DNA of 30,466 bases from positions 1 through 30,466 of the forward strand of contig JAHEEY010000001.1 in the NCBI GenBank assembly GCA_024640485.1. Direction: 5' to 3'. A program made the translations under genes and the position numbers. This stretch comes from Chloroflexota bacterium. GTDB lineage: Bacteria; Chloroflexota; Anaerolineae; Promineifilales; Promineifilaceae. The notes under the pieces are model-generated. The model saw nothing but the letters and a program-made list of their open reading frames with translations. It was not told where the DNA came from and ran no database searches. Within the stretch, counting starts at the first letter, position 1. Every line of letters begins with the position of its first letter. Below, in pieces: positions 12,347 through 27,230 of the stretch.

Positions 12347-12370
12347 GCAGTTGGAGAAGCAGATGAGGAC

Positions 12371-13381
12371 ATGGCTTTGAAGAAGGCGTTTCATGAACTG
12401 ACCAGCCGGGGCAAAGCCGGCCGATTGCGGCTAATGGCCCGCAAGGCGCTAGAGCAATACGATTTGAAGGTCAGCCGGATCAGGTTGATCAGCAACGATA
12501 TGAACGGCATTTTCCGGATCGACACCCACGGAGGCGCCAAATACATCCTGCGGGTGGCGCTGCCAGCCGGTGGGCACAGCGTAGCTAATCTGCGCTCTGA
12601 GATGATCTGGCTGCAGGCGCTGGCGCAGGACACGCAGCTGAGCATACCGCAGCCCCTGGCTGCCCGAGATGGACGGTGGGTCATCGAGGTGGCTGTCGAG
12701 GGGGTTCCAGAGCCGAGACTCTGTATGATTTTTGGCTGGGTGCCCGGCGGAGACCTGGCCAACCATATCAGCGTGGTTAACATGACCAAACTTGGCCGGC
12801 TGTCAGCTGAGCTCCACGTTCACGCGGCCGGCTTTGAGTCCCCGCCTTCATTCGATATTCTGCGCTTTGACAAGGTGTTCCCTTTCCCTGAGCCGGTGGT
12901 GCTGTTCGACGACGCTCACAGCCATCTTTTTCCGGACGGCCGGCGGGAAATCTACCGTCAGGCGGTCGACTGGGCTCAATCGGCTATCGACGCCCTGCAG
13001 GCGGCTGGGGAGCCGATGCGGGTCATTCATGGAGATCTTCATCAGTGGAATGTGCGCTGGTATCGGGGGCTGCTCTCGCCCATTGATTTCGAGGATATGA
13101 TGTGGGGCTGGCCGGTACAAGACATCGCTGTCACTCTCTATCACTTGTGGCAGCACCCCCAGTACCCGGCGCTCCGGCAGGCGTTTCAGAGAGGATATCA
13201 GACTCACAGCCTCTGGCCCGAGCGGTACCCGGGGGAGATTGATGCATTTATTGCCGCCAGAGCCGCCGGGATGGTCAATTTTGTGATTCAGAACAACGAT
13301 CCGGCATGGGAAATCGACTTGGTTGAATATAGTGAGAAAGCTGCGCGGCAGCTGCGCGCCCTTTTAGACCAGCGTCATTGA
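12371..13381 (+). CDS. APH/homoserine-kinase-type II superfamily phosphotransferase (AmiN/YerI-like)
   Basis: YILRV, IHGDLHQWNV (catalytic loop), PIDFED (metal-binding) and DIAVTL. Confidence 0.88.
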   Translation: MALKKAFHELTSRGKAGRLRLMARKALEQYDLKVSRIRLISNDMNGIFRIDTHGGAKYILRVALPAGGHSVANLRSEMIWLQALAQDTQLSIPQPLAARDGRWVIEVAVEGVPEPRLCMIFGWVPGGDLANHISVVNMTKLGRLSAELHVHAAGFESPPSFDILRFDKVFPFPEPVVLFDDAHSHLFPDGRREIYRQAVDWAQSAIDALQAAGEPMRVIHGDLHQWNVRWYRGLLSPIDFEDMMWGWPVQDIAVTLYHLWQHPQYPALRQAFQRGYQTHSLWPERYPGEIDAFIAARAAGMVNFVIQNNDPAWEIDLVEYSEKAARQLRALLDQRH

Positions 13382-13471
13382 TCCTGCATCGTTTCGGCGC
13401 GTCCTAGACCGTATCCTTCACCTTAGCTTCAACCAAGCCGCCGCCCACCAAGGGGAACGAAGGAGTATGCG

Positions 13472-14608
13472 ATGATAAAGAATATACGGCGCTGCCTTCT
13501 CTTGATTTGGCTGTTGATGTTTACTATCGGCTGCCAGGAGGCGGCTAAGGAGCCGCCCGACTATTGGCCGACGGACGGCTGGCGGACAACTTCCCCGGAA
13601 GAACAGGGAGTCAGGTCAGAGATTCTGGCCGATATGCTGGCGCTGGTCCAGGCGGAAGCGTATGCTATTGACAGCATCATGGTCGTGCGCAACGGCTATG
13701 TGGTGTTGGATACCACCATCTACCCATTCCTCCAGGGTTCCAGACACATTATCTATTCCTGCACCAAAAGCGTGGTATCCGCTTTGGTAGGTATCGCCAT
13801 CGACCAAGGCGCTATCGACGGCGTGCAGCAGCCGGTGACGGCCTTCTTCCCAGAGCTGGCCATCGAGAATTTTGACTCCCAGAAGCAGGAGATGACCCTT
13901 GAAGATCTGCTGACCATGCGCAGCGGGCTGGCTTGCCGCGATTCTTACCTGTACCGGTGGCAGGGGCTGCGTGAAATGGAGCAGAGTGAAGATTGGGTGG
14001 CCCACGTCCTGAGTCTGCCGATGGTAGAGGCCCCAGGCAGCCGCTTTGAATACTGCAACGGCGCCTCCTTCTTGCTGTCAGCCATTCTTCAGGAAACCAC
14101 AGACCAGACCGCTTTGGCGTATGCTCAAGAAAACCTGTTCGGCCCGCTAGGGATCGAAGATGTGGACTGGAAAGCCAATCCTCAGGGGATAAATATCGGC
14201 TGGAGTGATCTGTACATGAGGCCCGACGACATGGCCAAAATCGGATTACTCTATCTTCATGAAGGGCAGTGGGACGGCGAACAGATTATCTCGGCCGGCT
14301 GGATTCGGGATTCTACCCGATCCTATGTTGACGCCACCCTGCAGGATGGGTATGGTTATCAATGGTGGGTGAGCGACAGCGGTGTCTATATGGCCTTGGG
14401 CTATGCCGGACAGTTCATTTTCGTTGTGCCGCAGAAAGGGATGGTGGTGGTGTTCACCAGCGATTTGCCAGAGGATCAGTTTGCTGTCCCCCTGGGGCTG
14501 CTCAGCCAATATATTATCCCGGCAGCTGATTCACCCTCTCCCTTAGCGGCTGATCCGCAGAGCCAGGAAGCGCTTCAGACGCTGACTGTCTCATTGAGGG
14601 AGCCGTAG
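13472..14608 (+). CDS. Beta-lactamase-family serine hydrolase, probable lipoprotein
   Basis: Signal peptide ending FTIG-C; SCTK (SxxK), LLTMRSG, FEYCN (YxN), GYGYQWW and ALGYAGQ. Confidence 0.9.
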   Translation: MIKNIRRCLLLIWLLMFTIGCQEAAKEPPDYWPTDGWRTTSPEEQGVRSEILADMLALVQAEAYAIDSIMVVRNGYVVLDTTIYPFLQGSRHIIYSCTKSVVSALVGIAIDQGAIDGVQQPVTAFFPELAIENFDSQKQEMTLEDLLTMRSGLACRDSYLYRWQGLREMEQSEDWVAHVLSLPMVEAPGSRFEYCNGASFLLSAILQETTDQTALAYAQENLFGPLGIEDVDWKANPQGINIGWSDLYMRPDDMAKIGLLYLHEGQWDGEQIISAGWIRDSTRSYVDATLQDGYGYQWWVSDSGVYMALGYAGQFIFVVPQKGMVVVFTSDLPEDQFAVPLGLLSQYIIPAADSPSPLAADPQSQEALQTLTVSLREP

Positions 14609-14782
14609 GGTCCACGCTGCCGTGAAAAGCCGCAACCCAGGAGGATTGGGCTGCGTATAGATGCAAGAAGCTGTAAGGTCTGAGCGGGGAGCAGACAGAG
14701 GGGGCACCTTGAGCAATACGCGTACCCTGGCTAGAAACATCAACTGAATGAGCCAGGCGGAAATACATCAGGAGAGAAGTAG

Positions 14783-15703
14783 ATGCATACAGTAGAGGTT
14801 TCACATCTTGCCAAGCGGTTTGGTGATATCGAAGCGGTGGTGGATGTCTCCTTTGCCATCGAACCCGGCGAGATATTTGGCATGCTAGGACCTAACGGCG
14901 CCGGGAAAACCACCACGATTCGGATGATGATGGACATTTTTAAGCCCGATGCCGGCAGCATCAGTGTGTTAGGCGGCCCGCTAGATCTACCGAAAAAGCG
15001 GCGGATCGGCTACCTGCCGGAAGAAAGGGGGCTCTATAAAGATCAGAAGCTCGGCGCTACATTGACTTACCTGGCGATGCTGAAAGGGCTGGATCAGAAG
15101 ACCGCTGAAGGTCGTTTGGGACAATGGCTGGAACGTTTCGACTTGACTGATTACCGTCAGAAGAAGGTAGAAGAGCTGAGCAAGGGGATGCAGCAGAAGG
15201 CCCAGATTATCGCCACTTTGCTGCATGAGCCCGATTTGATCGTCATCGATGAGCCGTTTTCGGGGCTTGATCCCGTCAATACCCGGTTGGTCAAACGCAT
15301 CTTTGAAGAGCAAAGGGATGCTGGCAGGTCCATCATTATGTCCACTCATCAGATGTATCAGGTCGAGGCTCTGTGCAACCGGATTGTGCTGATCAATGAA
15401 GGACGCTCTGTGCTTTACGGCCGGGTGGAAGAGATCAAGCGCAATTTCGCCGGCAATGCGGTGGAGCTGAAAGGGCAGGGGGATTTCACTGAAATCCCTG
15501 GCGTTCTGGAGACACGGCAGCTGAATGGCAGCTGGCATCTGGCCCTGGAAATCGGGGCAGATCCTCAGGATGTGTTTCGTGCTTTGGCCAACCGTGACGG
15601 GGTAAAGATCGATCGTTTCGAGCTGGCGGAGCCATCACTCGATGATATCTTCATCAGCGTCGTGCAAGACGGCAATCACGGATCGGAGGCGGGGCATGTC
15701 TAA
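14783..15703 (+). CDS. ABC exporter ATP-binding protein (NatA/YhaQ-like with C-terminal DUF4162-like domain)
   Basis: GPNGAGKTT, GYLPEERGLY, LSKGMQQK, IVIDEPFSGLDP, MSTH and EPSLDDIF. Confidence 0.93.
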   Translation: MHTVEVSHLAKRFGDIEAVVDVSFAIEPGEIFGMLGPNGAGKTTTIRMMMDIFKPDAGSISVLGGPLDLPKKRRIGYLPEERGLYKDQKLGATLTYLAMLKGLDQKTAEGRLGQWLERFDLTDYRQKKVEELSKGMQQKAQIIATLLHEPDLIVIDEPFSGLDPVNTRLVKRIFEEQRDAGRSIIMSTHQMYQVEALCNRIVLINEGRSVLYGRVEEIKRNFAGNAVELKGQGDFTEIPGVLETRQLNGSWHLALEIGADPQDVFRALANRDGVKIDRFELAEPSLDDIFISVVQDGNHGSEAGHV

Positions 15704-16901
15704 CTTCTGGTTGGTGGCCAAGCATGAATACCGCAATGTGGTCATGCGCCGGGGCTTTGTGATCGGTACCGCCGCCGTCCCTTTGGGGCTGGCGCTGTTG
15801 ATTGGTATGGTCATTCTGGTTGAGAGATCGAGCGAAAACCGGCTGCCGATAGGATATGTGGATCAGGTTGGATTCCTGGACGAGAATGCGCAGCCGGCTG
15901 CCGCCGATGACGAAGAGCGGATTGAAATACAGGCGTTCGCGGATGAAGCCAGCGGTGTCCAAGCGCTGGAGCAGGAGGAGATCCAGGTACTATTTGTCTT
16001 CCCTCCCGATTACCCGGAAACGGTAAAAACAGAGCTGTACTACTTGGAGAAGCCCCCCAGCAATGACGTCTGGCGCGAATTCGACGATTTCGTACGGCTC
16101 AATCTGGTGCGCGGACTGCCAGAGGATGTGGCCTACCGCATGCTGGAAGGGACTAATGTGGTTGTCTATGACACTGCCAGTGACCGGGAGTTTAGTGAAA
16201 GCAGTATTATCAATGTTATCTTGCCCATGGTAGCCAGTTTCTTCTTCTTCTTCGCCACCATGTCGGCTGCCGGCTACCTGTTGGGGGTGATCGCCACCGA
16301 AAAAGAGAACCGGATGATGGAAACGCTGCTGACATCGCTGACACCGGGACAGCTGATCGGGGGCAAGGCGCTTGGATTATTATCGGCGACGCTAACCCAA
16401 CTAACCGTCCATATCGTTACCGCGCTGCTGGCCCTGAAATTTGCTTCACCGGTCATCGAAGCGTTGCAGAAAGCGGTGATCCCCTGGGAATATCTGGGAC
16501 TGTTAGCCCTGTTTTTCTTCCCGGCATACACGCTGGTTGCGGCGGTGATGGTTGCCATCGGCAGCGCCGCTGTTGAGATGCAGCAGGCACAGCAAGTCTC
16601 CGGCATCGTCAACCTCTTTTTCATCGCGCCGTTCTTTTTGGTCGCGCTGCTCTTTTCCAACCCGAATCACCCGATCATTGTCTTTATGACCTTATTCCCG
16701 ACTACCGCCTTCCTGACGGTTTCACTCCGTTGGGGGCTGGGGTCTATCCCGACGTGGCAGTTAGGCTTGAGCTGGGTCATTCTGGTCGGATCGACCGCGT
16801 TTATGATTTGGGCGGCTGCCCGGATCTTTCGGGCTGGTATGCTGCGCTACGGTCAGCCGCTGACCTTTAAGGGCGCCCTGGCATCGCTTCGCAACCAATA
16901 G
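15696..16901 (+). CDS. ABC-2 type permease (NatB/YhaP-like)
   Basis: ATG 15696 overlaps the ATPase 3' end, with GGAGG SD; VIATEKENRMMETLLTS...LIGGK. Confidence 0.9.
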   Translation: MSNFWLVAKHEYRNVVMRRGFVIGTAAVPLGLALLIGMVILVERSSENRLPIGYVDQVGFLDENAQPAAADDEERIEIQAFADEASGVQALEQEEIQVLFVFPPDYPETVKTELYYLEKPPSNDVWREFDDFVRLNLVRGLPEDVAYRMLEGTNVVVYDTASDREFSESSIINVILPMVASFFFFFATMSAAGYLLGVIATEKENRMMETLLTSLTPGQLIGGKALGLLSATLTQLTVHIVTALLALKFASPVIEALQKAVIPWEYLGLLALFFFPAYTLVAAVMVAIGSAAVEMQQAQQVSGIVNLFFIAPFFLVALLFSNPNHPIIVFMTLFPTTAFLTVSLRWGLGSIPTWQLGLSWVILVGSTAFMIWAAARIFRAGMLRYGQPLTFKGALASLRNQ

Positions 16902-16902
16902 G

Positions 16903-18174
16903 ATGGATAGCATGAGAACGATTTGGTTGGTCATAAAACATGAGATTTATACGACGCTTAGAAAGCGCTCTTTCTGGGTGATGACGTTTATCATGCCGGC
17001 GATTCTGCTGGCCTTTAATACCTATGCGGTGATTCAGGACAGCGATATTGGCGGATCTGAGGAGAGTGAAGCAGAGTCAGGCCCTGCCAGTTTGCCTGCT
17101 ATTGGCCTTGTAGATGACGCTGGCTTGCTCAAAGAGATGCCGGAAAGCTTTCCCCAGGACCTGTTTACCCCCTTCGCGGACGAAGCAGCTGCTATGTCGG
17201 CGTTGGAAGCCGGTGATCTGGAACAGATAGTCCACGTCCCTGCTGATTACTTAGCGACTGGCGAGATCCTGGTCTATGATCAAGAGTTCAAGCTCATGAG
17301 CAGCGGTGACGATATGGGTATCGCTTTTGGCAGCAGCAGTGACTGGGTGCTGCCCTATCTGATCAACTACAACTTGAGCGGGGACGAGTCGCTAACCGTA
17401 AAGCTGCGCAATCCTACCCCAGGCAGCATTGCCGAGCATCATGTGGTCCGGCCTACGGCAGATGCGATTGAGGGGGATGAGCGGGTGATGGCGGAGATCA
17501 TCGCCAGGGCGATGCCTTACATCTACTACTTCATCTTGATTATCAGCAGCGGCTATATGCTGACCAGCGTCACGGCCGAGAAGGAAAACCGCACAGTAGA
17601 AGTGCTCCTGCTCAGCCTTAATCCCCGCCAGCTGATGCTGGGCAAGATCATCGGGTTGACCGTTGTCGTCCTGGTGCAGATGTCCGTCTGGTTTGCCGGC
17701 GGCGCGCTGACAGTGGGGCAGAGCTCCAGCTTGTTGAATATCTCGGCCTTTGATTTTCCGCCAGGATTCTTTATTTGGGCGACGCTCTTTATGCTCGGAG
17801 GCTATCTGCTCTATGCCTCGGTGATGGCTGCGGTTGGGGCAATCGCCAATACGGCCCGCGAAGGCAATCAAATCACCTGGATTCTGATTCTGCCGCTGAT
17901 GCCCACATTGATGTTTGCCGACAAATTCTTGACTGAACCTAACGGAACGCTTTCCATGGTGCTCAGTATGTTTCCCTTCAGCGCGCCCAGTGCTATGGTG
18001 ACCCGATTGGCCGTCGCTGATGTGCCCTTGTGGCAGCTGGGAGTCAGCCTCGGAGGATTGGCGCTGACGGCGTATCTGATGATCATGCTGGCCAGCCGTT
18101 TCTTCCGTCCGCACCACCTGCTGTCAAAATCCAAATTCAACTGGCGCCGATTTGCTGCCGCCCTGCGTGGTTAG
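16903..18174 (+). CDS. ABC-2 type permease (NatB/YhaP-like), second subunit
   Basis: SVTAEKENRTVEVLLLS...LMLGKI and PFSAPSAMVTR. Confidence 0.9.
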   Translation: MDSMRTIWLVIKHEIYTTLRKRSFWVMTFIMPAILLAFNTYAVIQDSDIGGSEESEAESGPASLPAIGLVDDAGLLKEMPESFPQDLFTPFADEAAAMSALEAGDLEQIVHVPADYLATGEILVYDQEFKLMSSGDDMGIAFGSSSDWVLPYLINYNLSGDESLTVKLRNPTPGSIAEHHVVRPTADAIEGDERVMAEIIARAMPYIYYFILIISSGYMLTSVTAEKENRTVEVLLLSLNPRQLMLGKIIGLTVVVLVQMSVWFAGGALTVGQSSSLLNISAFDFPPGFFIWATLFMLGGYLLYASVMAAVGAIANTAREGNQITWILILPLMPTLMFADKFLTEPNGTLSMVLSMFPFSAPSAMVTRLAVADVPLWQLGVSLGGLALTAYLMIMLASRFFRPHHLLSKSKFNWRRFAAALRG

Positions 18175-18200
18175 GGTCTGACACCGGTTCTCGCCAACAC

Positions 18201-18236
18201 AAAAAAGGTCACCTTAATGGTGACCTCTTTTGTTTT
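18201..18236. terminator. Bidirectional intrinsic terminator between the convergent exporter and sulfur operons
   Basis: AAAAA-AGGTCACC-ttaat-GGTGACCT-CTTTTGTTTT. Confidence 0.82.
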
Positions 18237-18265
18237 ATAGAAGGCTATTCTGCTGATGATTGGGG

Positions 18266-19498
18266 CTAGCCGCAGCCTCCGCTGGTGGGCGCCCGCTTCA
18301 GTTCTAGCTCCACTTTGGGAACAAAGTTCAATTCGAACTGGTGAGGATCTGGTTCCGCGGCCGCGTGCCGGGAGCCCAGGGCGGCGTCAAACGCAAATTG
18401 GAGCTGGTCTTGCCCCGCCGCCGTGACCGCATATTGGGCCTTGAATTCGTCGCCGGCAAATTGATCCAGCCAGCCGTTGATGCCGCCGCCCAGGATATAG
18501 ACATTGGGCACGCTCTCAGCCTGCAGCGTCTTCCACGCCTCGGTTGCGGCAGCTTCATCATTACTCATGACGATGAAGACAGCATTAGCTGGTTCCATGT
18601 GCAGATCCGCGATGACATTGGGGAGTTCTGCCTGGGGGACATTCTTGGCATCCAGGATGTGGAACAGGTTGAAGTTGGCCTCATCCCGGACGTCGATCAT
18701 CATTGGTTTGAGCTTGGTATCATGCAGCAGTTCCAGCAGCTCGCCGGGATCAATCTGTACCGCTCGTTCTGACAGAATTTCGCTCTTTTCAGCGGCGATG
18801 GTTTGCCAGCGGTCTTCGGTGGTCGGTTGGCCAACGGCGATCAGGGCGATGGAAACGATCACCAGCGCGCCAGCGGCGCCATAACGCCATTTAGGCGCTT
18901 TCTTGGGTTCCATGCCGCCAAAAATCCGTTCCAGCTGTTCCGATCCCCAGAACATGAATAGGGCCATGAGAACGACCAGCAGTACGACCGTGCCGGTCTC
19001 CAAACCTAGCCAGTCGGGAAGGGTGAAGCGGCCCATATAGGAGGAGTTCCAGAAGCCTTCGAAATTGCTGACAGTTTCGCCGAACATGAAGACGCCGAAC
19101 AGTACCCCCAGGGTAAAGAAAATGCCGTCGATTTTGGCAGTCGCCACTGCGACCAGCGAAGTGCCGGGGCAGAAACCGCCGATGATGAACCCGGCGCCCA
19201 TGATGAGTCCGCCGACGATTCCTGGCCAGAGGTAGGTCGGGTTAACCCAGACCAGGTTGTAGTCCAGCAGCCCCAAGGAAGAAGCGGTGAAGATGAGGAC
19301 CATGGCCACAATGATGCCGGTGAACATGACTTTCAGGACGGTCATGTCTTTGAAGTAGAATTGAGCCGCCAGTTTGCGGGAATTGCCGAAACCAGCGATT
19401 TCCAGAGCGTAGCCGAAGGCGACGCCGATCAGCGCGAATACGACGTAGGCGCCCCAGTGTCCCAGCAGTTCGCTTAAGGGTAAAGGAAACGTTGTCAT
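18266..19498 (-). CDS. YeeE/YedE (sulfur transporter) half-protein fused to a rhodanese-like domain with C-terminal GGCG
   Basis: GVAFGYALEIAGFG, GGLIMGAGFIIGGFCPGT (YeeE); IDVRDEANFNLFHILDAKNVP...VYILGGGINGW (rhodanese fold); AGGAG SD. Confidence 0.87.
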   Translation of the reverse strand: MTTFPLPLSELLGHWGAYVVFALIGVAFGYALEIAGFGNSRKLAAQFYFKDMTVLKVMFTGIIVAMVLIFTASSLGLLDYNLVWVNPTYLWPGIVGGLIMGAGFIIGGFCPGTSLVAVATAKIDGIFFTLGVLFGVFMFGETVSNFEGFWNSSYMGRFTLPDWLGLETGTVVLLVVLMALFMFWGSEQLERIFGGMEPKKAPKWRYGAAGALVIVSIALIAVGQPTTEDRWQTIAAEKSEILSERAVQIDPGELLELLHDTKLKPMMIDVRDEANFNLFHILDAKNVPQAELPNVIADLHMEPANAVFIVMSNDEAAATEAWKTLQAESVPNVYILGGGINGWLDQFAGDEFKAQYAVTAAGQDQLQFAFDAALGSRHAAAEPDPHQFELNFVPKVELELKRAPTSGGCG

Positions 19499-19571
19499 AA
19501 TTTTCTCTCTCCTGCAGTAGGTCGGTCACAGACGGGCGGGCAGCCGATCTGCAAACAGCCAATGCGTGGGT

Positions 19572-20141
19572 TTAGTTCCAGAATTTCCGGACGAAATAGG
19601 CCAGGGCGTAGGCGCCGCCGAATACGGCGAACATAAATGCCCAACTGCCAACGGACAACACGGAGCCTCCAGACAAAGCTTGACCAGAGGTGCATCCGCG
19701 GGCGAAGCGAGCGCCGTACCCCATCAGGCCGCCGCCGATGAAGGCGGTGAGCCAGCGGGTGCGGGTGCTGATTTGGGGCCCTTTATTCGTTTCCAATTTG
19801 ACGCGGCCGTTTATCAAGCCTGAGATGAAACCGCCGACAATAGTGCCGGCTGTCAGGAAGACAATCCAGCTGTCCAGGGGGTTTCTCTCACCGCCGGCCA
19901 TTTCCAGCAGATAAGGAACGCGATCAACATGCCCCGGAGCTACCAGGTCTTCGAAGAAGACCACAAACCGGTTCAGGCCGCCGGACGCGCCCAGGCCGCT
20001 GCCGGTTATAAAGAAAGCCAGGAACAGGACCACGCCCAGCATAATGCCGGCGGCATACGGGTTGGTGTATGCTTTTTCGACCCGCTTGCTCAAGCGACCC
20101 GATGCGGCAGCTGTGGATTCAGGTGATGTAAAAGCTGTCAT
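19572..20141 (-). CDS. YeeE/YedE family half-protein
   Basis: NPYAAGIMLG, GLGASG and GGGLMGYGARFARGCTSGQALSGG; GGAGG SD. Confidence 0.9.
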   Translation of the reverse strand: MTAFTSPESTAAASGRLSKRVEKAYTNPYAAGIMLGVVLFLAFFITGSGLGASGGLNRFVVFFEDLVAPGHVDRVPYLLEMAGGERNPLDSWIVFLTAGTIVGGFISGLINGRVKLETNKGPQISTRTRWLTAFIGGGLMGYGARFARGCTSGQALSGGSVLSVGSWAFMFAVFGGAYALAYFVRKFWN

Positions 20142-20276
20142 AGTATTATTCTGCCTCCATAATGAGCGATTGCTCTTTCACTGGTGCGAAACACATAGCC
20201 AATGTTGCGGTCATATGCTTCGCACCAGGGTAGTTGCCCTTTAGGGCAATGCTCGTGGTTGTAGAGAACCTTTCCC

Positions 20277-23024
20277 CTAGTCACCAGTCGCAGGTGCTTG
20301 AGAGCTCTGGTGTACTTCCAGTTCATCCCAGCCCATAATCATTGATTTGATGCCAGCCATCGGCTTGTGGCCGGTGGTGGTCAAATAAACGTGACCAACG
20401 ATGAAGGTGGCAAACAGCCAGGCGATAATCGTGTGGAACGGCGCCAGGAACGGCAGTCCGCCCAGCTTGGCGGCCACTTCCGGCCACCGCTGCACGCCCC
20501 ACATGAAGATGCCGGTCAGCATCTGCAGCGGCAGCAGCACATTGAGGATGCTGAAGTAGGTGATCTGCTGCAGCGGATTCAGTTTTCTGTCGACGGTCTT
20601 GTCGAAGGGATGTTCATCCCCTTTGAAAATACCGCGGATATAGAAGGTTGCCTGGGTGATCGTCTGGCTGAAGAAACCTCGCGGCTGCGGCAGATATTGG
20701 CGAATTTCGCCGCTGGCCAAATGGTAGAAGACTGCCAGGGCAGCATTGACTACCAGAACGGCTGCCAGGACATTGTGTACCTGCACCATATATTTGAAGC
20801 TGAAGCCGCCGAACAAGTGCGGTTTGTGAATGACCAAGCCGGTGACGATCAGGATCAAGATGGCTGTTGTCTGCAGCCAATGCCACAGCCGCTCGTAGAC
20901 GCCGTACATGTAGACTTCCTGCAGTTCCGGCTCGTGGACTGGGCGTCGACGGGCGGCGAAGAAGCGCAGTCCGCCGTGGGTGATCACCCCGACGATGGTC
21001 GCCAGGAAGATGAAGAGCCCGGCCCGGTCGATCAAGCTGACATTGTTATGCCCCAGGACATATAGGTCATCCGCCGCCGTCTGCGGCTGGTAATACAGTT
21101 TGCCGTCATCAGTGGTGACTAGCTCGCCGCTGAACGCGGTGTTGCTGTCGGTGACGAAGGTCGGCATCACCCCGCCTGGCATCTGGTTGGCCAGCAGCAT
21201 CGGCTGGGCGATCCGCGACTCTTCAGTGTGGCAGGTATCGCAATCTTTGGTGGCCCATTGTCCGTTGGTGACATCGTGGTTGATGCTGTACGGTTGGACC
21301 TCACCAATGATACGGGGATTTTCAAGGCCCAGGGCCTGCAGCCGTGACTGGATCAGCGCTTCCTTCTCAGCCGTGTCGATCCGCAGCTCTTCCGCATCGA
21401 GCTTGTTGTTCCCGTCGGCATCGAACGCGGCCAGGATATCGGACTGATAGCTGTCGCCGTCGAACCAGGCAGCCTGCAGGTCCAGCAATCTTACCGGTTG
21501 GGCCGGTTCGCCATAAACCCAAAACCACGAGCTGACCAGGTTGTAGGGAGCCAGCAGTTGGCCGCCGTCATTTCCCTGGCGGCTCAACAAGACTGGCGTG
21601 TAGCCATTGATCAGAGAGTTGCTGCTGATTTCGCCATCGACGCCCCGGAGGGTCGCGGCGGGAGAGCCGTCCAGCTGTAAAACGGTCCAGTCCACATCTT
21701 GGCGAGTTGGCGCGTAGATGAAGGGGATGTGGCACGATTCACAGCTAAGGCTGCTGACATGCTTATCTTTGTAGGGCAGCCAATCGTGGGTCGCATCGAC
21801 ACTGTGGCACGATTCGCAGCGGCGCAAAGTGTTGTCGAGATCCGGCGCGACGGTCCCTTGGGCGCTCTGCCCCTTGGCAAATTGGTGCAGCGGTCGCTGC
21901 AGATATTCACCGATGTCGATCCGTCGGGGGTCGAAGATGAGGTGGCCGGGTTTGGACTCAGACAAGTCCTGGTAATAGACAGGATTGTTGAGGGAATAAT
22001 GGCAGTCGGTACAGGCTACTACCCGTTCGGTATGTATGTCCCAAGAACGGGAGAGCGATTCTTTGCCCGAAAGGTTCAGCCCAGAGTCTGAGAGGCGTTG
22101 GGGCGAGATGACTTGACCGGTGGTTCCAGTAGTCCACTCAGCCAATGATGCCTGGTCCAGAGTCAGTGGTGTCGATAGATCCATGTGGACAACGCCGTGG
22201 CATTGGCCGCAATTCTCGTTGGTGGGATCCTGAATCGTGACGAATTCGACAGTCAGGTAGCCGTCACTGTCAAACGCATCAGCATTCCAATTCCAATTCC
22301 CGTCTTCCTGGGAGATGATGCCGGTGCCCAACAGGGTGGCGCTGCTGGCCCATTTGAATGAACCAGCCTGCAGCGCTGCGATGCGGGCATCATTGTTGGG
22401 GTTTGACAGATGGCAGAGGAAGCAGTTCATTTCCACAGTGCCGGAGTCCTGCCAGTTCCAGGCTGCGGCTTCGCCGGTTTCCGGATCAATGGTGGAGGTT
22501 TCTACATTGCCAGCATCTGCAGCTAGTGAAGCCAGCGGGAACCCGCTGCGGCTGAATACCGCTGGGCCGCCGCCGACATGTCGGGCGCCGAACAGCTTGA
22601 TCCAGTCAGCGGTAGTCAGATCGACGGTGGCGCTCCCCCGAGGAGTTAGGGTGCGATAGGTCAAGGGATTCCATTTGCCGAAGTAACCAGGGCTGGTGTC
22701 CCAAGGGAGGCCATTTTCAACTGTGCCGTTATCGCTGTAATCGTCCAGGCCCACGGAAGTGTGGAAACTGTGTTCGGCGATGAATTCGGTGTCGTGACAG
22801 CTGCCGCAGGTTTGCATCGTAGAGACCGGCTTGCCGCTCTCTAGCACGCTTTCGCCAGCATCATCGAGGAGCTGAAAAGTAGGATGCAGCGGCGAGATCG
22901 GGCTCGTTTCTTGAGCGGACGCCGGCTGTCTGATGAGTATCAAAAGCGCGACCAGCAATACACCCGACAGGATTGTGTAAAGCAGCAGTCTGGGTTTTGA
23001 ATGATTATGGCTGATTGTGTACAT
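20277..23024 (-). CDS. Multiheme c-type cytochrome (7 CxxCH, OTR-paralogous) fused to C-terminal cytochrome b (PhsC/Ni-hydrogenase cyt b type)
   Basis: Signal peptide ending PASA-QE; CGSCH, CFLCH, CGQCH, CTDCH, CESCH, CESCH, CDTCH; then TM helices with ERLWHW, VQVHN, KLNPLQ and FH...VGHVY. Start placed at ATG 23024. Confidence 0.9.
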   Translation of the reverse strand: MYTISHNHSKPRLLLYTILSGVLLVALLILIRQPASAQETSPISPLHPTFQLLDDAGESVLESGKPVSTMQTCGSCHDTEFIAEHSFHTSVGLDDYSDNGTVENGLPWDTSPGYFGKWNPLTYRTLTPRGSATVDLTTADWIKLFGARHVGGGPAVFSRSGFPLASLAADAGNVETSTIDPETGEAAAWNWQDSGTVEMNCFLCHLSNPNNDARIAALQAGSFKWASSATLLGTGIISQEDGNWNWNADAFDSDGYLTVEFVTIQDPTNENCGQCHGVVHMDLSTPLTLDQASLAEWTTGTTGQVISPQRLSDSGLNLSGKESLSRSWDIHTERVVACTDCHYSLNNPVYYQDLSESKPGHLIFDPRRIDIGEYLQRPLHQFAKGQSAQGTVAPDLDNTLRRCESCHSVDATHDWLPYKDKHVSSLSCESCHIPFIYAPTRQDVDWTVLQLDGSPAATLRGVDGEISSNSLINGYTPVLLSRQGNDGGQLLAPYNLVSSWFWVYGEPAQPVRLLDLQAAWFDGDSYQSDILAAFDADGNNKLDAEELRIDTAEKEALIQSRLQALGLENPRIIGEVQPYSINHDVTNGQWATKDCDTCHTEESRIAQPMLLANQMPGGVMPTFVTDSNTAFSGELVTTDDGKLYYQPQTAADDLYVLGHNNVSLIDRAGLFIFLATIVGVITHGGLRFFAARRRPVHEPELQEVYMYGVYERLWHWLQTTAILILIVTGLVIHKPHLFGGFSFKYMVQVHNVLAAVLVVNAALAVFYHLASGEIRQYLPQPRGFFSQTITQATFYIRGIFKGDEHPFDKTVDRKLNPLQQITYFSILNVLLPLQMLTGIFMWGVQRWPEVAAKLGGLPFLAPFHTIIAWLFATFIVGHVYLTTTGHKPMAGIKSMIMGWDELEVHQSSQAPATGD

Positions 23025-23129
23025 AGTTAGTCCCGTGGCCAGGCATTGACTTGGATGGATTCTAGGCTCTGCGAGCCGGCCCATTCCAGATCAATTGCCT
23101 GCCGCTGATTATTACCTTTTGGACATTCC

Positions 23130-24572
23130 TTATCGTGAACCCAGGAAGGTCTCGTCTCGACCACCCCAACGTAGGGGGTCACCATAGTAGCCCAGCGCTT
23201 CCCAATCAATGCGGCCGGTGTCGCCATGGCATTCCTGGCACTGCAGGGCGTTCTCTTTGGGCTGGACCATGTGGCTTAGGTTCCAGTACATCTCTGTGGG
23301 AGCGAATCCGTATTCGCCGCTGTAAGCCATGCCGGAAATTTCCGATCCCAGGGTTACGGCTTTGTCCCAATCGAAATCAGTCCAATAGCCACCTTCGCCC
23401 ACCGTTTTCGGCTGCAGGATGTAGTTGTACTGACTATCGTAAATCTGTGTGGCCCGGTGAATCTTGAAAGGCCAGATCTTGGCTGTCGGGTCGGTGATGT
23501 CACCCAGGGGCATGTTGAGGACCGTAGAGACGGTCGGATCAATGAGATCGCCTAAAATGTACCGGTCAGCCTTCCCATTGAACCAGGCGTACTCCGGCGT
23601 GAAGCCGCGCTCGTAGACGAAGGCGCCTTTGATTTTAAGATAGACATGGGGATCTTCCGGCAAATCTTGCCCAGCAGCGGACCAATCCCATTCCATCTTG
23701 GTTGGCTGACGAACCGCACCTTCCGGCACATGGCATGTTTGGCAGGCGACCGTATCCACATGGGCGGTGATGCGTTCGTCTTCATGCAGCGATTCGTCGT
23801 GGCACTCGGTGCAAGCCAATACATTGCTGTCATCGGCGCTGACCGAGATACTGTGACCTTTGACCAGGTGATCTTCGGTCTTGTGACAGTCAGTGCAGAC
23901 GAAATCATATCGTCCCATATGAACGTCGATATCCTCGGAAGGGAAATAGAGGCTCTCGTCCAGATCGCCGTGTTTGACGGCATTGCCGCCTCCGCCGTTG
24001 AAGTGGCAGCTGCCGCAGTTCTGGCGGGTGGGTGTGCCTACGCTCTGGGCAGCCGCCAGGAGGTCAACCCCTTCTGCCGGCAGCCCCTTGGCTGCTTTCG
24101 TATAAGTGCCAGTATCGGCGTGGCAGACCAGACAGTCGACGTTCCCTTCATCAGAGAAATCGAAGTTCGCATCTTCCCAGCCATAACCGGCGTGACACCG
24201 GGTACATCCAGGCCAGTTGCCCTGAATGCCGATGCAGAAATTGTTGATCTGATTTTTCTTGCCGATAGTGACCGGTTCATCGCGGCCTGGCAGCATGACC
24301 GGTTCGCTCTCCCAGGTGTAATGAACGGTCTCTGCCACCTGATGGGCGGCGTCTTCATGACATGCCAGACAGGCGGCGGTAACTTCCGGACCAGTTTCGA
24401 AGGTTCCCGACAGGAGGTCGGTATGATCTGTGTGCGGGGCCCGTACGGGGACGCCAGCCCAAGGGTCCTGCTCTGTCTCCGGTTCCCCGGAAGCGAATAG
24501 TGCAATTGGGATAATCACCAGTGACAAGGTGACTATCAAACCAATAACCCAGATGTATTTGAAATCTTTCAT
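23130..24572 (-). CDS. otr: Octaheme tetrathionate reductase family c-type cytochrome
   Basis: Eight CxxCH (CLACH, CTRCH, CLVCH, CGSCH, CTDCH, CTECH, CQTCH, CQECH), the family motif GKKNQINNFCIG, KIWPFKIH and LSHMV; N-terminal hydrophobic signal or anchor. Confidence 0.88.
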   Translation of the reverse strand: MKDFKYIWVIGLIVTLSLVIIPIALFASGEPETEQDPWAGVPVRAPHTDHTDLLSGTFETGPEVTAACLACHEDAAHQVAETVHYTWESEPVMLPGRDEPVTIGKKNQINNFCIGIQGNWPGCTRCHAGYGWEDANFDFSDEGNVDCLVCHADTGTYTKAAKGLPAEGVDLLAAAQSVGTPTRQNCGSCHFNGGGGNAVKHGDLDESLYFPSEDIDVHMGRYDFVCTDCHKTEDHLVKGHSISVSADDSNVLACTECHDESLHEDERITAHVDTVACQTCHVPEGAVRQPTKMEWDWSAAGQDLPEDPHVYLKIKGAFVYERGFTPEYAWFNGKADRYILGDLIDPTVSTVLNMPLGDITDPTAKIWPFKIHRATQIYDSQYNYILQPKTVGEGGYWTDFDWDKAVTLGSEISGMAYSGEYGFAPTEMYWNLSHMVQPKENALQCQECHGDTGRIDWEALGYYGDPLRWGGRDETFLGSR

Positions 24573-24811
24573 ATTGTTTTACTGCTTACTATGCTATCGA
24601 GAATAGATGCTTTACTAGACGACAACCCAGTACTCTACTGTGCGAGTCCGAGCTCGGAATACGGTGACGTAAAAATAGTTGATTCTTGGGATGGCTTTCG
24701 GTAATGACGGCTCAAATCCCCACTTCAGCTTTTCAGCGCGCTGCTAAAATCCGTTCCATGCACTTCTCCAAGACGTGTAGCTTTGGCTCAGTTCAGTAAT
24801 CATTCCGCCCG

Positions 24812-25144
24812 TCAATCAGCTTCCGCCAGCAGTTCTGATTGCCGCGCAACTGCATCGCGAAGGATTACCCGCATCTCGTTGAGAATCTCTATCATCCGTT
24901 TGTCCGCGAGTCGGTATATGACCGCCGGCCCCTGGCGTTCCGTTATCACCAGCGCGCGCTGTCGCAGCACGCGCAAGTGCCGAGAAATAGTCGGCTGGGG
25001 AGTGTGCAGATGATCTGCCAATGCAGACACATTCAGAGGCTGTTCGTCCAAGGCGTACAGAATCTGAATCCTCTTCGGATCGCCCAATGCCTGGCAAATG
25101 TTGGCGTGCAGCATTGATAGTTCATCAATCGTTGGTTTATGCAT
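24812..25144 (-). CDS. ArsR/SmtB family transcriptional regulator
   Basis: ICQALGDPKRIQIL...VSALA...QPTISRHLRVLR...V...RQG..IYRL winged HTH. Confidence 0.92.
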   Translation of the reverse strand: MHKPTIDELSMLHANICQALGDPKRIQILYALDEQPLNVSALADHLHTPQPTISRHLRVLRQRALVITERQGPAVIYRLADKRMIEILNEMRVILRDAVARQSELLAEAD

Positions 25145-25159
25145 AAAGCCGTTTTATCC

Positions 25160-25189
25160 TTCATGTATTCGGATATCCGAATATATGAA
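25160..25189. promoter_or_regulatory. 30-bp near-perfect palindrome, probable ArsR operator
   Basis: TTCATGTATTCGGATATCCGAATATATGAA; 14 of 15 pairs complementary; 15 nt upstream of the arsR ATG. Confidence 0.75.
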
Positions 25190-25227
25190 GATATTATGAG
25201 AAATGCGGGCGCGTGAACATGGACAGA

Positions 25228-25257
25228 TGTCACAAGTAGTGTGTGACAATTGTCACT
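25228..25257. promoter_or_regulatory. Crp/Fnr-family-like box with an additional inverted half-site
   Basis: TGTGA-CAATTG-TCACT (25242-25257) plus TGTCACA (25228-25234) inverted against TGTGACA. Confidence 0.45.
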
Positions 25258-25294: not shown

Positions 25295-25654
25295 CTATTT
25301 GTCGTCCAACAGCTCGGCGATTCTCTCTTCCAACCTGTCGAGGTCCCAGCTGCCCTGATCATGAATAATGGAGCGCAGCATCGGGTCTACTTCGCTGATG
25401 GTGTCCAGAATGTCACCTAGCAGCTGCTGTTGTTCTATGACTCGAGTGATTTCATTCGGGGATGAGACCATGTCGCGAAGAATGGCTCCATCTGAGCGCG
25501 ATGCGATGAAAGGTTGGCTGATGCCTTCAACATAAACGTGGGTGCGCTGACCCGGTCCGCGACCCTCATCGATAGGCGCCAGCCCCACAATCCTGTCTGA
25601 CCTGAAATATTTGCCGTAGCCTAGAGCTACCATCTCGCCAGTTGCGACTCTCAT
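25295..25654 (-). CDS. Hypothetical protein, N-terminus weakly reminiscent of RemA/DUF370
   Basis: GGAGGAG SD before ATG 25654; MVALGYGKYFRSDRIVGL...FIASRS; helical C-terminus. Confidence 0.7.
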   Translation of the reverse strand: MRVATGEMVALGYGKYFRSDRIVGLAPIDEGRGPGQRTHVYVEGISQPFIASRSDGAILRDMVSSPNEITRVIEQQQLLGDILDTISEVDPMLRSIIHDQGSWDLDRLEERIAELLDDK

Positions 25655-25805
25655 CTCATCTCCTCCAGTTGCGAGATATTGCTCCCTGATGAATGAATAT
25701 CTCACGGAAAAATCGCCTTCGAACCATTAAATTGACGAAACGTTGGGCGGCTGGGATATTGAGCGGCCTGTTGGCCGCTGGTCTAGAGCGGCTGTCTAGA
25801 CCGGC

Positions 25806-27230
25806 TTAATTGCTGTCACCCGATGAAGCTGCCGGAATAAAGGTCTTGTACACCCGTGGGGCGTAGATAACATTATCGGATGTAAGGGTCTGCCCATGTT
25901 TGCCGCCTAAGGCAAAGATGCGCACTTCTACGCTGGCGACGCCCAGATCTGACCAGGTTGAAAACTCTGAGAGCTCCGGGGTGTTGACTACCTGCCAGGT
26001 CTGGGTGTTGGGATCATATACTTCACTGTACAGGATCTCATCCGTTTCATTGGCGCCGCCGATGACATAGAGCTTGTTGAGGACGGTCGCCGCTCCGGCA
26101 CCGGACCGAGGCAGCAGCATGTCGGGGCAGCTGCTCCAGGTTAGTGTGGATGTGTCGAAACGATTGCAGGAGGAGAGATCCGCCTCGCCGTTGCGCCCAC
26201 CGACCACATAAAGCTGTCCCGTGACCGCTTTGCCGGCGGCGAAGGCCGCCGGGTGAGGCATCGACGGCAGCGGCCGCCAGCTGTCTGCGCCAACATCATA
26301 GACAAAATTGGTGTCTAGGAAACCACTCTCATCCCATCCGCCGAATAGATATAAGAAGCTGCCGTCGGAGATGGCCAGCCCACCGGCAATTGGCTGAGGG
26401 ATAGCGGTAACGGCACGCCAGGCATCATTGGCAGGGCTGTACACTTCCACAACATTGGTGGGGGTACCATCCGCGGCCCGCCCACCGGGGACGTAGATCT
26501 CGCCAAATAGGACGGCTGCGGAAGCGTCGGCAACGACGGTGGGTTTGGAGGCGGCCTGGCGCCAGCTCTGGGTGGTGGTATCGAACACGTTAACGGTGCC
26601 AACGACGCCATCTGCTGTTTCACCGCCAATCTGATAAACATTGACGCCTACAGCGGCTGCCGCCATATGGGCAACGGCCAAGGGCAAAGGGCGGCTTTGG
26701 AACCAATCGCTGTCCCCAAGGCGCGTTTCTTGGAACAGCTCCGGGGTCGCTTCCGGCCCCGGCTTGAGGGCGCGCTGGCCGAATCCGAACCACAGAGCGG
26801 CGACCACTGCGATCGTCAGCACGGCTGTCGCGGCTGCTGTTCGCCAACTGAAGGGACGGGCTGCCGGCGGCACCGATATGAGATCCGAGGTGGTTTCGGC
26901 TGGGGACGTCGGCTCATCTTCCAACTGTTCTTCAGGCTCTTCGGACGCGGGGAGCGGCAGTTCAGGGCTGTCCGGCACTACAGCAGCTGTAGAAGGGGAA
27001 GCAGCTGCATCTTCGCTGGCGATGATGATCAGGCGCTGCTGGAGAGCCGTTGTCGTCGCTTCGGTTCGCGAAGAAGCCCCCAGCTTGCTAAAGATATTGC
27101 GCAGGTGGACCTTTACGGTGTTCTGGCTGATCAGCAGGCTGGCGGCGATTTCTTTGTTGGAAGCGCCTTCAGCAACACATTGCAGCACTTCCAATTCACG
27201 TTGACTGAGAGAGTCACCAAGTTCAGGCAT
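25806..27230 (-). CDS. LuxR-type HTH - transmembrane - Kelch-repeat beta-propeller protein
   Basis: LSQRELEVL...GASNKEIA..L.IS.NTVKVHLRNIFSKLG..SRTEA; hydrophobic segment AAATAVLTIAVVAALWFGF; six GG...W Kelch repeats. Confidence 0.9.
   Translation of the reverse strand: MPELGDSLSQRELEVLQCVAEGASNKEIAASLLISQNTVKVHLRNIFSKLGASSRTEATTTALQQRLIIIASEDAAASPSTAAVVPDSPELPLPASEEPEEQLEDEPTSPAETTSDLISVPPAARPFSWRTAAATAVLTIAVVAALWFGFGQRALKPGPEATPELFQETRLGDSDWFQSRPLPLAVAHMAAAAVGVNVYQIGGETADGVVGTVNVFDTTTQSWRQAASKPTVVADASAAVLFGEIYVPGGRAADGTPTNVVEVYSPANDAWRAVTAIPQPIAGGLAISDGSFLYLFGGWDESGFLDTNFVYDVGADSWRPLPSMPHPAAFAAGKAVTGQLYVVGGRNGEADLSSCNRFDTSTLTWSSCPDMLLPRSGAGAATVLNKLYVIGGANETDEILYSEVYDPNTQTWQVVNTPELSEFSTWSDLGVASVEVRIFALGGKHGQTLTSDNVIYAPRVYKTFIPAASSGDSN

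Follow-up and report, generated by a model that had tools for sequence, protein, structure and literature searches.

The structure of OTR, an octaheme c-type cytochrome of Shewanella oneidensis, was reportedly solved in 2004, and the physiological role of the enzyme is said to have been open ever since. A role with sulfite has been proposed (PMC12949373), tetrathionate raised otr transcription 36-fold in sediment microcosms (PMC8528874), and otr adjoins soxY/soxZ in lucinid symbionts (PMC11237559). In Ignavibacteria Ch128a, the pairing of Otr with a cytochrome b561 has been remarked upon (PMC7509429). Here we describe a five-gene operon around a member of this family, located on the minus strand of a 30,466-nt stretch of a Promineifilaceae genome (Chloroflexota; GenBank assembly GCA_024640485.1, contig JAHEEY010000001.1, positions 1 to 30,466), which is referred to as the window. 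The operon comprises arsR, otr, a gene for a heptaheme/cytochrome b fusion protein, and two genes for the C- and N-terminal halves of a YeeE-type channel, the latter half being joined to a rhodanese domain (Table 1). The best explanation of this arrangement, to which we give slightly better than even credence, is a quinol-fed, outward-facing Otr reductase with sulfur species handled by a cysteine-bearing arm and the channel.

The closest described counterparts of the channel are YeeE, a thiosulfate transporter, and its half-size relatives. In StYeeE the N-terminus lies outside and helix 7 flips the topology of the second half (PMC7449682). Half-size proteins of the PmpA (C-half) and PmpB (N-half) type were described by Li et al. 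(PMC11582611); they are tied to the uptake of zero-valent sulfur, and a transfer from SoxYZ to an importer resembling YeeE is reported in the same work. Each component of the operon has known relatives, and the database names of its proteins are generic only. No description of the five-gene operon, of an Otr-derived electron-input subunit or of a rhodanese-arm/YeeE fusion was found in the open-access papers and preprints searched.

The five genes were found at the positions given by the initial annotation, which had recognized them as a co-oriented unit between an upstream regulatory site and a terminator; the open reading frames, a terminator hairpin and conserved promoter sites bear this out. 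Its count of 15 CxxCH motifs, eight in Otr and seven in the fusion protein, is likewise correct, as are the b-type membrane domain (PF01292) and the two complementary PF04143 halves.

Otr and the Otr-derived fusion protein

Otr scored 564.8 bits against TIGR04315 (cut-off 375) and 513 bits against Shewanella OTR (1SP3), the alignment spanning the whole mature protein. Its eight CxxCH motifs are located at 68, 123, 147, 186, 226, 254, 277, and 445. The stretch GKKNxINNFC of 1SP3, which is the source of the unusual lysine ligand of heme 2 and of a nearby cysteine, is matched residue for residue, with Lys56 corresponding to Lys105 (24258–24260) and Cys64 to Cys113 (24234–24236). The N-terminus is formed by an extended hydrophobic stretch that lacks a lipobox and may serve as a membrane anchor or a signal. 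Homology thus supports an outward-facing enzyme with an intact active site, like Shewanella OTR in its eight CxxCH motifs, whole-length alignment, Lys/Cys pair and extracytoplasmic location. However, Shewanella OTR is soluble in the periplasm and lacks dedicated partner genes. The Otr described here starts with a hydrophobic anchor or signal, and its gene is invariably accompanied by those for a dedicated quinol-linked partner, a split YeeE channel and a cysteine arm.

The fusion protein, whose likely start is Met21 at 23024, combines an Otr-derived heptaheme domain (approximately 21099–22907) with a five-helix cytochrome b of the PhsC/FdnI type (approximately 20316–21038). In profile–profile alignments (hhalign), the Otr family matched the fusion family end to end, with Otr residues 1–480 aligned onto fusion residues 30–662 (99.6%, E 6e-23). 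The seven CxxCH motifs of the fusion correspond to Otr hemes 1 and 3–8. In place of the heme-2 motif the fusion has F-G-x-R-H, in which His169 is invariant; the active-site cysteine is gone, and the score against TIGR04315 (30.7 bits) is far under the cut-off of 375. According to these alignments, the heme domain is an Otr paralog minus the catalytic heme 2 and not a functional member of the family. A Foldseek search with the fusion gave no match of the heme domain to 1SP3, since the predicted local distance difference test (pLDDT) values of the heme-free model are low in this region; homology to Otr was therefore settled by the profile–profile alignment in place of a structural match.

The cytochrome b domain (PF01292, residues 727–917; 78.8 bits, cut-off 30.1) has PhsC as its best NCBIfam relative (NF011582; 137.9 bits, under the equivalog cut-off of 204). 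One transmembrane helix is followed by an FdnI-like four-helix core. His735, His770, His884, and His898 are invariant, the last two being spaced by 14 residues as in FdnI, and Foldseek matched the domain to FdnI (1kqf_C; TM 0.65) and also to the cytochrome b of hydrogenase-1. Homology thus supports a diheme cytochrome b linked to quinol and joined to seven c-type hemes on an Otr-shaped scaffold. The initial annotation had proposed a chain from quinol via cytochrome b and a "heme wire" to Otr. This architecture is coherent, but the wire appears to be a disabled copy of the enzyme itself, because the catalytic heme-2 motif and the active-site cysteine have been lost. MccA–MccCD and NrfA–NrfH/NrfBCD likewise combine a periplasmic multiheme reductase with a membrane module dedicated to supplying it with electrons from quinol. 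Unlike in these systems, the quinol module of the operon consists of a cytochrome b and, fused to it, a degenerate version of the reductase, and it is peculiar in being made from the enzyme's own fold.

Split YeeE channel and cysteine arm

The two YeeE-type proteins cover complementary parts of PF04143 (cut-off 27), with 82.2 bits for the C-half (profile positions 164–309) and 54.2 bits for the N-half (10–165). Cys150 of the C-half, which aligns with StYeeE 237–326, is located in the motif RGCTSGQ and is invariant (41/41), and so is Cys110 of the N-half in GGFCPGTS. They correspond in position to Cys91 and Cys293, the two cysteines essential in StYeeE. YeeE/TsuA transporters are single polypeptides of approximately 330–350 aa with three conserved cysteines; here the protein is split between two genes, and the first-loop cysteine is absent. 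The initial annotation had compared the channel to the thiosulfate transporter TsuA. This assignment had to be dropped: scores against the TsuA equivalogs were only 40 bits (NF052577, cut-off 400) and 19 bits (NF041049, cut-off 645), and the C-half scored about equally for YedE/FdhT (39.7 bits) and TsuA (40.4 bits). Judged by these profiles, the channel is a split YeeE of the PmpA/PmpB type and not a TsuA equivalog, and homology supports that it has retained both essential cysteines. As in PmpA/PmpB of Serratia under PigS/BigR (PMC11582611), there are two half-size YeeE proteins with one conserved cysteine each and an ArsR-family regulator alongside. In contrast to the Serratia proteins, the PmpB-like half is extended by two transmembrane helices and by a rhodanese-like domain that is predicted to face outward and bears the cysteine arm. 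The operon ArsR also differs from regulators of the PigS/BigR systems in having one cysteine elsewhere than BigR, and it is encoded with cytochromes where those systems have a persulfide dioxygenase.

The AlphaFold model of the N-half protein contains six helices, namely the four of the half, the equivalent of helix 7 and one more. The numbers of lysine plus arginine residues in the successive loops (35 homologs) are 0, 2.5, 0.1, 1.0, 1.2 (with 3.3 aspartate plus glutamate), and 2.5. Because the six helices and this alternation are in keeping with an N-terminus outside the membrane, as established for YeeE (PMC7449682), we regard it as likely that both termini lie outside and that the rhodanese domain is extracytoplasmic.

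The rhodanese domain was detected by PF00581 (49.3 bits, cut-off 22.2) and modeled with pLDDT 80–90, and its matches to rhodanese folds had TM scores of 0.65–0.8. The position of the catalytic cysteine is occupied by Ser312 (18563–18565) in an invariant SNDE motif, and the domain is predicted to be catalytically dead on account of this replacement. Its C-terminal arm carries Cys409 (18272–18274) in the sequence GGCG directly before the stop codon, and low pLDDT values indicate a flexible tail. The GGCG-stop terminus was found in 36 of the 38 homologs from the loci compared, and the best 120 database homologs end in GGCG or GGCGS (119 proteins) or SGSCG (one protein). In the two exceptional loci, L031 (terminal stretch at 14609–14623) and L038 (14395–14409), the cysteine codon is TGA, followed by AGC-TAA in L031 and by GGC-TGA in L038. 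A SelB scoring over the curated cut-off was detected in each of these genomes. The TGA probably specifies selenocysteine, and an exchange of cysteine and selenocysteine is expected of a reactive, functionally central thiol. The two proteins are candidate selenoproteins with a GGU(S/G)-stop terminus, a form that was not spotted in the selenoprotein list of PMC13188914.

A Gly-Gly-Cys-Gly terminus is reminiscent of the GGCGG arm of SoxY in SoxYZ, although this is an analogy only, because neither a SoxY fold nor PF13501 was detected in the arm protein by Pfam. The rhodanese fold is shared with Sud, a polysulfide-sulfur transferase in the periplasm of Wolinella (1QXN), to which there is a weak sequence match (E 0.005). 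SoxY and Sud are extracytoplasmic proteins that hold sulfur on a cysteine and offer it to a redox enzyme, and the same may apply to the arm of the operon. Unlike in Sud, the catalytic cysteine of the loop is replaced by serine, and unlike both SoxY and Sud the carrier is tethered covalently to the channel.

Conservation and variants of the operon

In a large protein collection, more than 2,300 homologs of the fusion protein were counted; the 120 top-ranking ones are full-length, share 58–65% identity with it and stem from Anaerolineales, Ardenticatenaceae, Promineifilaceae and unclassified Chloroflexota, consistent with the Chloroflexota host that the initial annotation had suspected. Linkage of otr, the fusion gene and yeeE across genomes, which had been named there as a check, was examined with two independent probes. 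A search of species-representative genomes with the fusion protein returned 48 loci. In 47 of them the order arsR-otr-fusion-YeeE(C)-YeeE(N)/rhodanese was observed wherever the contig was long enough, including one Neomarinimicrobiota and one Calditrichota metagenome-assembled genome (MAG). L052 (Hydrogenedentes), which encodes another multiheme/cytochrome b fusion without Otr or YeeE, was set aside. The second probe consisted of the rhodanese domain and tail only and was used on 401 genomes sampled across the phylum; 19 contained matches, 18 of these in one family. All five genes were present in order at 16 of the 17 loci fetched. The remaining one (L069; G220:C18:14985–32498) is decayed, with fragments of the fusion gene, the YeeE C-half and the rhodanese domain interrupted by stop codons and frameshifts at approximately 11800–13500, and no match to arsR or otr; here the genes were lost jointly. 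Overall, the five-gene order was found at approximately 63 of about 64 loci examined, wherever these were long enough, in the phyla Chloroflexota, Neomarinimicrobiota, and Calditrichota, and the operon behaves as a cassette within variable surroundings.

Otr enzymes pair with several kinds of quinol module, as is evident from an unfused pair in one relative, an Otr–cytochrome b fusion in a second and NrfC/NrfD-like partners in a third. In the first case (L074:1753–4271), the 658-aa heptaheme domain derived from Otr and its cytochrome b were called as separate genes with a 4-nt overlap; the cause may be a frameshift, or the unfused state may resemble the ancestral one. The second, the contig of P0243 (ENA ERZ24794672), carries a variant cassette of ArsR, Otr and cytochrome b in one 1094-aa protein, and two YeeE genes, followed by genes for an SQR-like flavoprotein, a DsrC-like and a DsrE-like protein; upstream lie a second ArsR and a CoADR-rhodanese of the persulfide reductase type. 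This contig was one of two informative cases, the other being P0245, among distant Otr representatives sampled for context, which also comprised two contigs that were too short and two orphan otr genes. In the third, L037 (Ardenticatenaceae MAG), the stretch 15653–20152 directly 3′ of the conserved cluster encodes a 787-aa Otr with extra c3-type hemes, accompanied by an NrfC-like 4Fe-4S protein and a membrane protein similar to NrfD; in these partners the variant resembles Nrf systems. The genome of the window contains another Otr locus (contig C43:8631–12282). It consists of a divergent LysR gene, the gene for a 550-aa Otr, which scores 645 bits against TIGR04315 and shares 43% identity with the operon Otr, and a distinct gene for a 242-aa cytochrome b with 37% identity to the C-terminal domain of the fusion; no YeeE genes follow up to the contig end at 12604. 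The operon resembles such two-gene modules, known from C43 and from Ignavibacteria Ch128a (PMC7509429), in that Otr stands beside an FdnI/PhsC-type cytochrome b taken as the quinol dehydrogenase. It differs from them by the heme-2-less Otr paralog that is inserted between the two and fused to the cytochrome b, and by the additional YeeE/rhodanese genes and ArsR.

Regulator and promoter

The first gene encodes an ArsR/SmtB-family regulator (NF033788: 84.9 bits, cut-off 55; HTH_5: 55.8 bits, cut-off 22). It falls below the cut-offs for BigR (44 vs. 155 bits) and for TsoR (71.8 vs. 115 bits), its second-best NCBIfam relative, which regulates a selenoprotein operon including a rhodanese/DsbD-like membrane protein (PMC13188914). 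Its single cysteine, Cys17 (codon 25094–25096), is invariant (37/37). Dithiol sensing of the BigR/SqrR type was rejected for this protein, as there is one cysteine only, aligned with a leucine of BigR upstream of the sensing cysteine.

The core of the predicted ArsR operator, TATTCG-N6-CGAATA at 25166–25183, is an exact palindrome with a single occurrence in the window. It was recovered with at most two mismatches in the arsR upstream regions of 28 of 35 relatives, including Neomarinimicrobiota L038. The predicted operator overlaps the predicted transcription start, just downstream of CATAAT. A site of the CRP/FNR type lies 74 nt from the operator, approximately 63 nt ahead of the predicted start point; it was found in 23 of the 35 relatives, compared to 1.6% of background windows, at a nearly constant spacing of approximately 74 nt to the operator. 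Conservation of both sites in relatives greatly exceeds the background. The initial annotation had taken this palindrome (25242–25257) for the operator at the upstream boundary: the site is indeed a conserved palindrome, but it is of the CRP/FNR type, and the predicted ArsR operator is the one at 25159–25190. A second ArsR operator ahead of otr was looked for in the window and not found. A weaker CRP-like half-palindrome, TGTGA-N6-TCCAT at 25216–25231 (positions counted by hand), lies approximately 23 nt downstream of the main CRP/FNR-type site, near −41.

Proposed function and alternative explanations

We infer that the four structural proteins form a single complex, in which electrons flow from menaquinol to Otr and the substrate or product is held on the arm cysteine before passing through the channel. 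Menaquinol would be oxidized by the diheme FdnI/PhsC-type cytochrome b of the fusion protein, and the electrons would be conducted through the seven c-type hemes of the Otr-derived domain, which may act as a built-in, Otr-shaped docking wire. They would then reach the catalytic Otr with its lysine-ligated heme 2 and nearby cysteine; homology supports both of these steps. For the subsequent reaction, the substrate might be S–S-bonded sulfur, that is, tetrathionate, polysulfide or S0, a thiosulfonate, or a persulfide adduct. The terminal cysteine (selenocysteine in some relatives) of the GGCG arm could present this substrate or capture the product, the arm being placed on the cysteine-less rhodanese-like domain, by which it would be anchored on the outer side of the PmpB-like half. 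Finally, the outer Cys150 and the inner Cys110 could relay sulfur across the membrane, and modification of ArsR Cys17 by sulfur may lift repression at the operator overlapping the transcription start. A second input, probably linked to redox state or anaerobiosis, would come from a factor of the CRP/FNR type bound 74 nt upstream.

A sulfur substrate in vivo, as postulated in the initial annotation, is favored by the genomic context. Sulfur is preferred over nitrogen oxides because of the obligatory linkage to the channel and arm, because the neighbors of the variant cassette around P0243 include DsrC, DsrE, an SQR-like flavoprotein, and a CoADR-rhodanese under another ArsR, because otr adjoins soxY/soxZ in lucinid symbionts (PMC11237559), and because transcription of otr is induced by tetrathionate (PMC8528874). 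In line with the claim that no molybdoenzyme is needed, none is encoded within the cluster; several molybdopterin oxidoreductases are encoded elsewhere in this genome. As for the proposed coupling of Otr to import or relay of the sulfur product, import of a free product has become less likely and a hand-over by a carrier cysteine likelier, since the rhodanese lacks the catalytic cysteine, is predicted to be outside and bears the GGCG arm. Our preferred hypothesis is therefore that Otr would act on an S–S-bonded adduct borne by the arm, comparable to SoxY-bound thiosulfonate or Sud-bound polysulfide. A more far-reaching version holds that the Otr family is carrier-dependent, its natural substrate being a sulfur adduct on the cysteine or selenocysteine of a tethered SoxY-like arm, and that Otr, the dead paralog–cytochrome b fusion and the split YeeE form one complex coupling quinol oxidation to reductive release and cysteine-to-cysteine relay of sulfur across the membrane, which would make it a heme-based, molybdenum-free counterpart of Psr/Sud and Sox chemistry; this we put forward tentatively, with more doubt than trust.

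Several observations weigh against a quinol-fed sulfur reductase with an external arm. In Shewanella, OTR was dispensable for tetrathionate respiration in a 2026 study, and its best activities in vitro are those with nitrite and hydroxylamine (PMC12949373). The directions of both sulfur movement and electron flow are inferred, and the outward topology is deduced from homology together with the positive-inside rule; the membrane half is poorly modeled by AlphaFold (pLDDT <50 across much of residues 35–110). Cys17 of ArsR fits no characterized persulfide-sensing cysteine pair. For the TGA codons of L031 and L038, hairpins after the TGA were no better than those of shuffled sequences and no selenocysteine insertion sequence was matched in Rfam. 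A search for expression recovered the locus in only four sediment DNA runs and in zero RNA runs.

The strongest alternative is that free tetrathionate, or another soluble sulfur oxyanion, is reduced by Otr to thiosulfate, which would diffuse to the split YeeE for TsuA-like import, with the rhodanese and tail as accessories. It agrees with the membership of the enzyme in the Otr family and the activity of OTR on tetrathionate in vitro (for the history, see PMC12949373), with the induction of otr by tetrathionate (PMC8528874), with thiosulfate transport by YeeE (PMC7449682), and with the synteny. Yet the channel halves are PmpAB-type and score far under the TsuA equivalog cut-offs, an otr deletion in Shewanella had no tetrathionate phenotype (PMC12949373), and this model leaves unexplained why an outward, catalytically dead domain should keep an invariant terminal cysteine that is exchanged with TGA. 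We thus consider it rather unlikely.

SoxXA-type heme enzymes load thiosulfate onto SoxY oxidatively. With this precedent, the operon could also be read in the oxidative direction: sulfane sulfur or thiosulfate would be exported or captured on the arm and oxidized by Otr, and the electrons would travel via the heptaheme domain and cytochrome b to the quinone pool in an FdnI-like loop. The cytochrome b of formate dehydrogenase-N, to which the fold match points, runs that way, and DsrE, DsrC, and SQR-like neighbors occur in the P0243 variant. Anaerolineae are expected to use menaquinone. This quinone could not be reduced by the thiosulfate/tetrathionate couple (+198 mV, cited in PMC8528874), the best match of the cytochrome b is PhsC, a quinol-oxidizing subunit, and DsrA was absent from a search of this genome (91% completeness). 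The reductive direction is favored on the first two of these grounds, and the oxidative one appears improbable.

A selenium system, in which Otr reduces selenite or Se–S species and the YedE-like halves and the cysteine/selenocysteine arm traffic selenium for selenoprotein or selenouridine synthesis, is suggested by the equal scores of the C-half for YedE/FdhT and TsuA, by the TGA variants of the arm and the presence of SelB and SelD, and by selenocysteine forms of YeeE and TIGR04315 proteins listed in PMC13188914. SelD is nearly ubiquitous in the phylum (299 of 401 genomes, 75%) and the cluster occurs in 19, so that there is no specific association and this test does not discriminate. A fifteen-heme wire of respiratory scale would be excessive for trace-element uptake, and the sulfur-trafficking neighbors in the P0243 variant favor sulfur; we regard the selenium model as highly improbable. 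The same low likelihood is given to the view that Otr reduces nitrite and hydroxylamine, its top substrates in vitro, or sulfite as suggested in PMC12949373, and shares only a promoter with a separate sulfane-sulfur homeostasis unit of ArsR, PmpAB, and rhodanese, since, although ArsR (PigS/BigR)–PmpAB operons without cytochromes are known (PMC11582611), the four structural genes are linked at every locus examined in three phyla, with intergenic gaps down to 12–30 nt in relatives, and this linkage survives changes in the Otr/cytochrome b arrangement and ended in joint decay in L069.

A quinol-fed Otr acting with the arm and channel would have consequences beyond this genome. The Otr active site is tied to a quinol module and a sulfur channel with a cysteine/selenocysteine arm in more than 1,000 protein clusters from sediments and sludge, and the operon gives Otr a sulfur-based role that can be tested by the adducts of one cysteine, one regulator–operator pair, and one topology. 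If correct, it would represent a common, unannotated pathway for sulfur intermediates in Anaerolineae, which are abundant in sediments and wastewater, and an example of an enzyme that has recruited its own disabled copy as electron-input subunit.

Layout of the locus and neighboring genes

Table 1. Genes, domains and predicted regulatory elements of the otr operon (positions in the window; strand "." marks palindromes given without strand)
Feature	Position	Strand	Basis
ArsR/SmtB-family regulator, 110 aa	24812–25144	−	NF033788, HTH_5
Otr octaheme c-type cytochrome, 480 aa	23130–24572	−	TIGR04315
Fusion protein, 935 aa: signal peptide, Otr-derived heptaheme domain and cytochrome b domain	20277–23084	−	CxxCH motifs, hhalign, PF01292
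PmpA-like C-terminal half of YeeE channel, 189 aa	19572–20141	−	PF04143
YeeE N-half and rhodanese protein, 410 aa	18266–19498	−	PF04143, PF00581
PmpB-like N-terminal YeeE half with two extra transmembrane helices (six in total)	18830–19498	−	PF04143, AlphaFold model
Rhodanese-fold domain without catalytic cysteine, predicted extracytoplasmic	18449–18763	−	PF00581, fold matches
C-terminal arm KRAPTSGGCG-stop	18269–18298	−	Homolog alignment
Bidirectional intrinsic terminator hairpin	18206–18226	both	Perfect 8-bp stem, T-runs on both strands
Predicted ArsR operator, 32-nt palindrome	25159–25190	.	Sequence match, conserved in relatives
−10-like hexamer CATAAT	25193–25198	−	Sequence reading; relatives have TATAAT/TATACT at the equivalent place
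CRP/FNR-type palindrome TGTGA-N6-TCACA, one mismatch	25242–25257	.	Consensus match

Because the terminator hairpin has T-runs on both strands, it is predicted to be bidirectional, and a convergent ABC-2 permease gene shares it with the operon. The other neighbors (ABC-2 transporters, a LuxR-Kelch protein, glycosyltransferases) have no relation to the operon and are not kept in relatives. Just 5′ of it, on the minus strand, lie a 136-aa open reading frame without family match (25295–25705) and the gene of a LuxR-HTH protein with six Kelch repeats (25806–27230). Weak matches to the latter near the cluster in three relatives were confined to its LuxR HTH part, and neither gene is probably part of the operon. 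The spacer between arsR and otr is unusually long (239 nt, compared to a minimum of 12–30 nt in relatives), and a perfect 12-nt palindrome, TCCGAGCTCGGA, is located inside it at 24647–24658.

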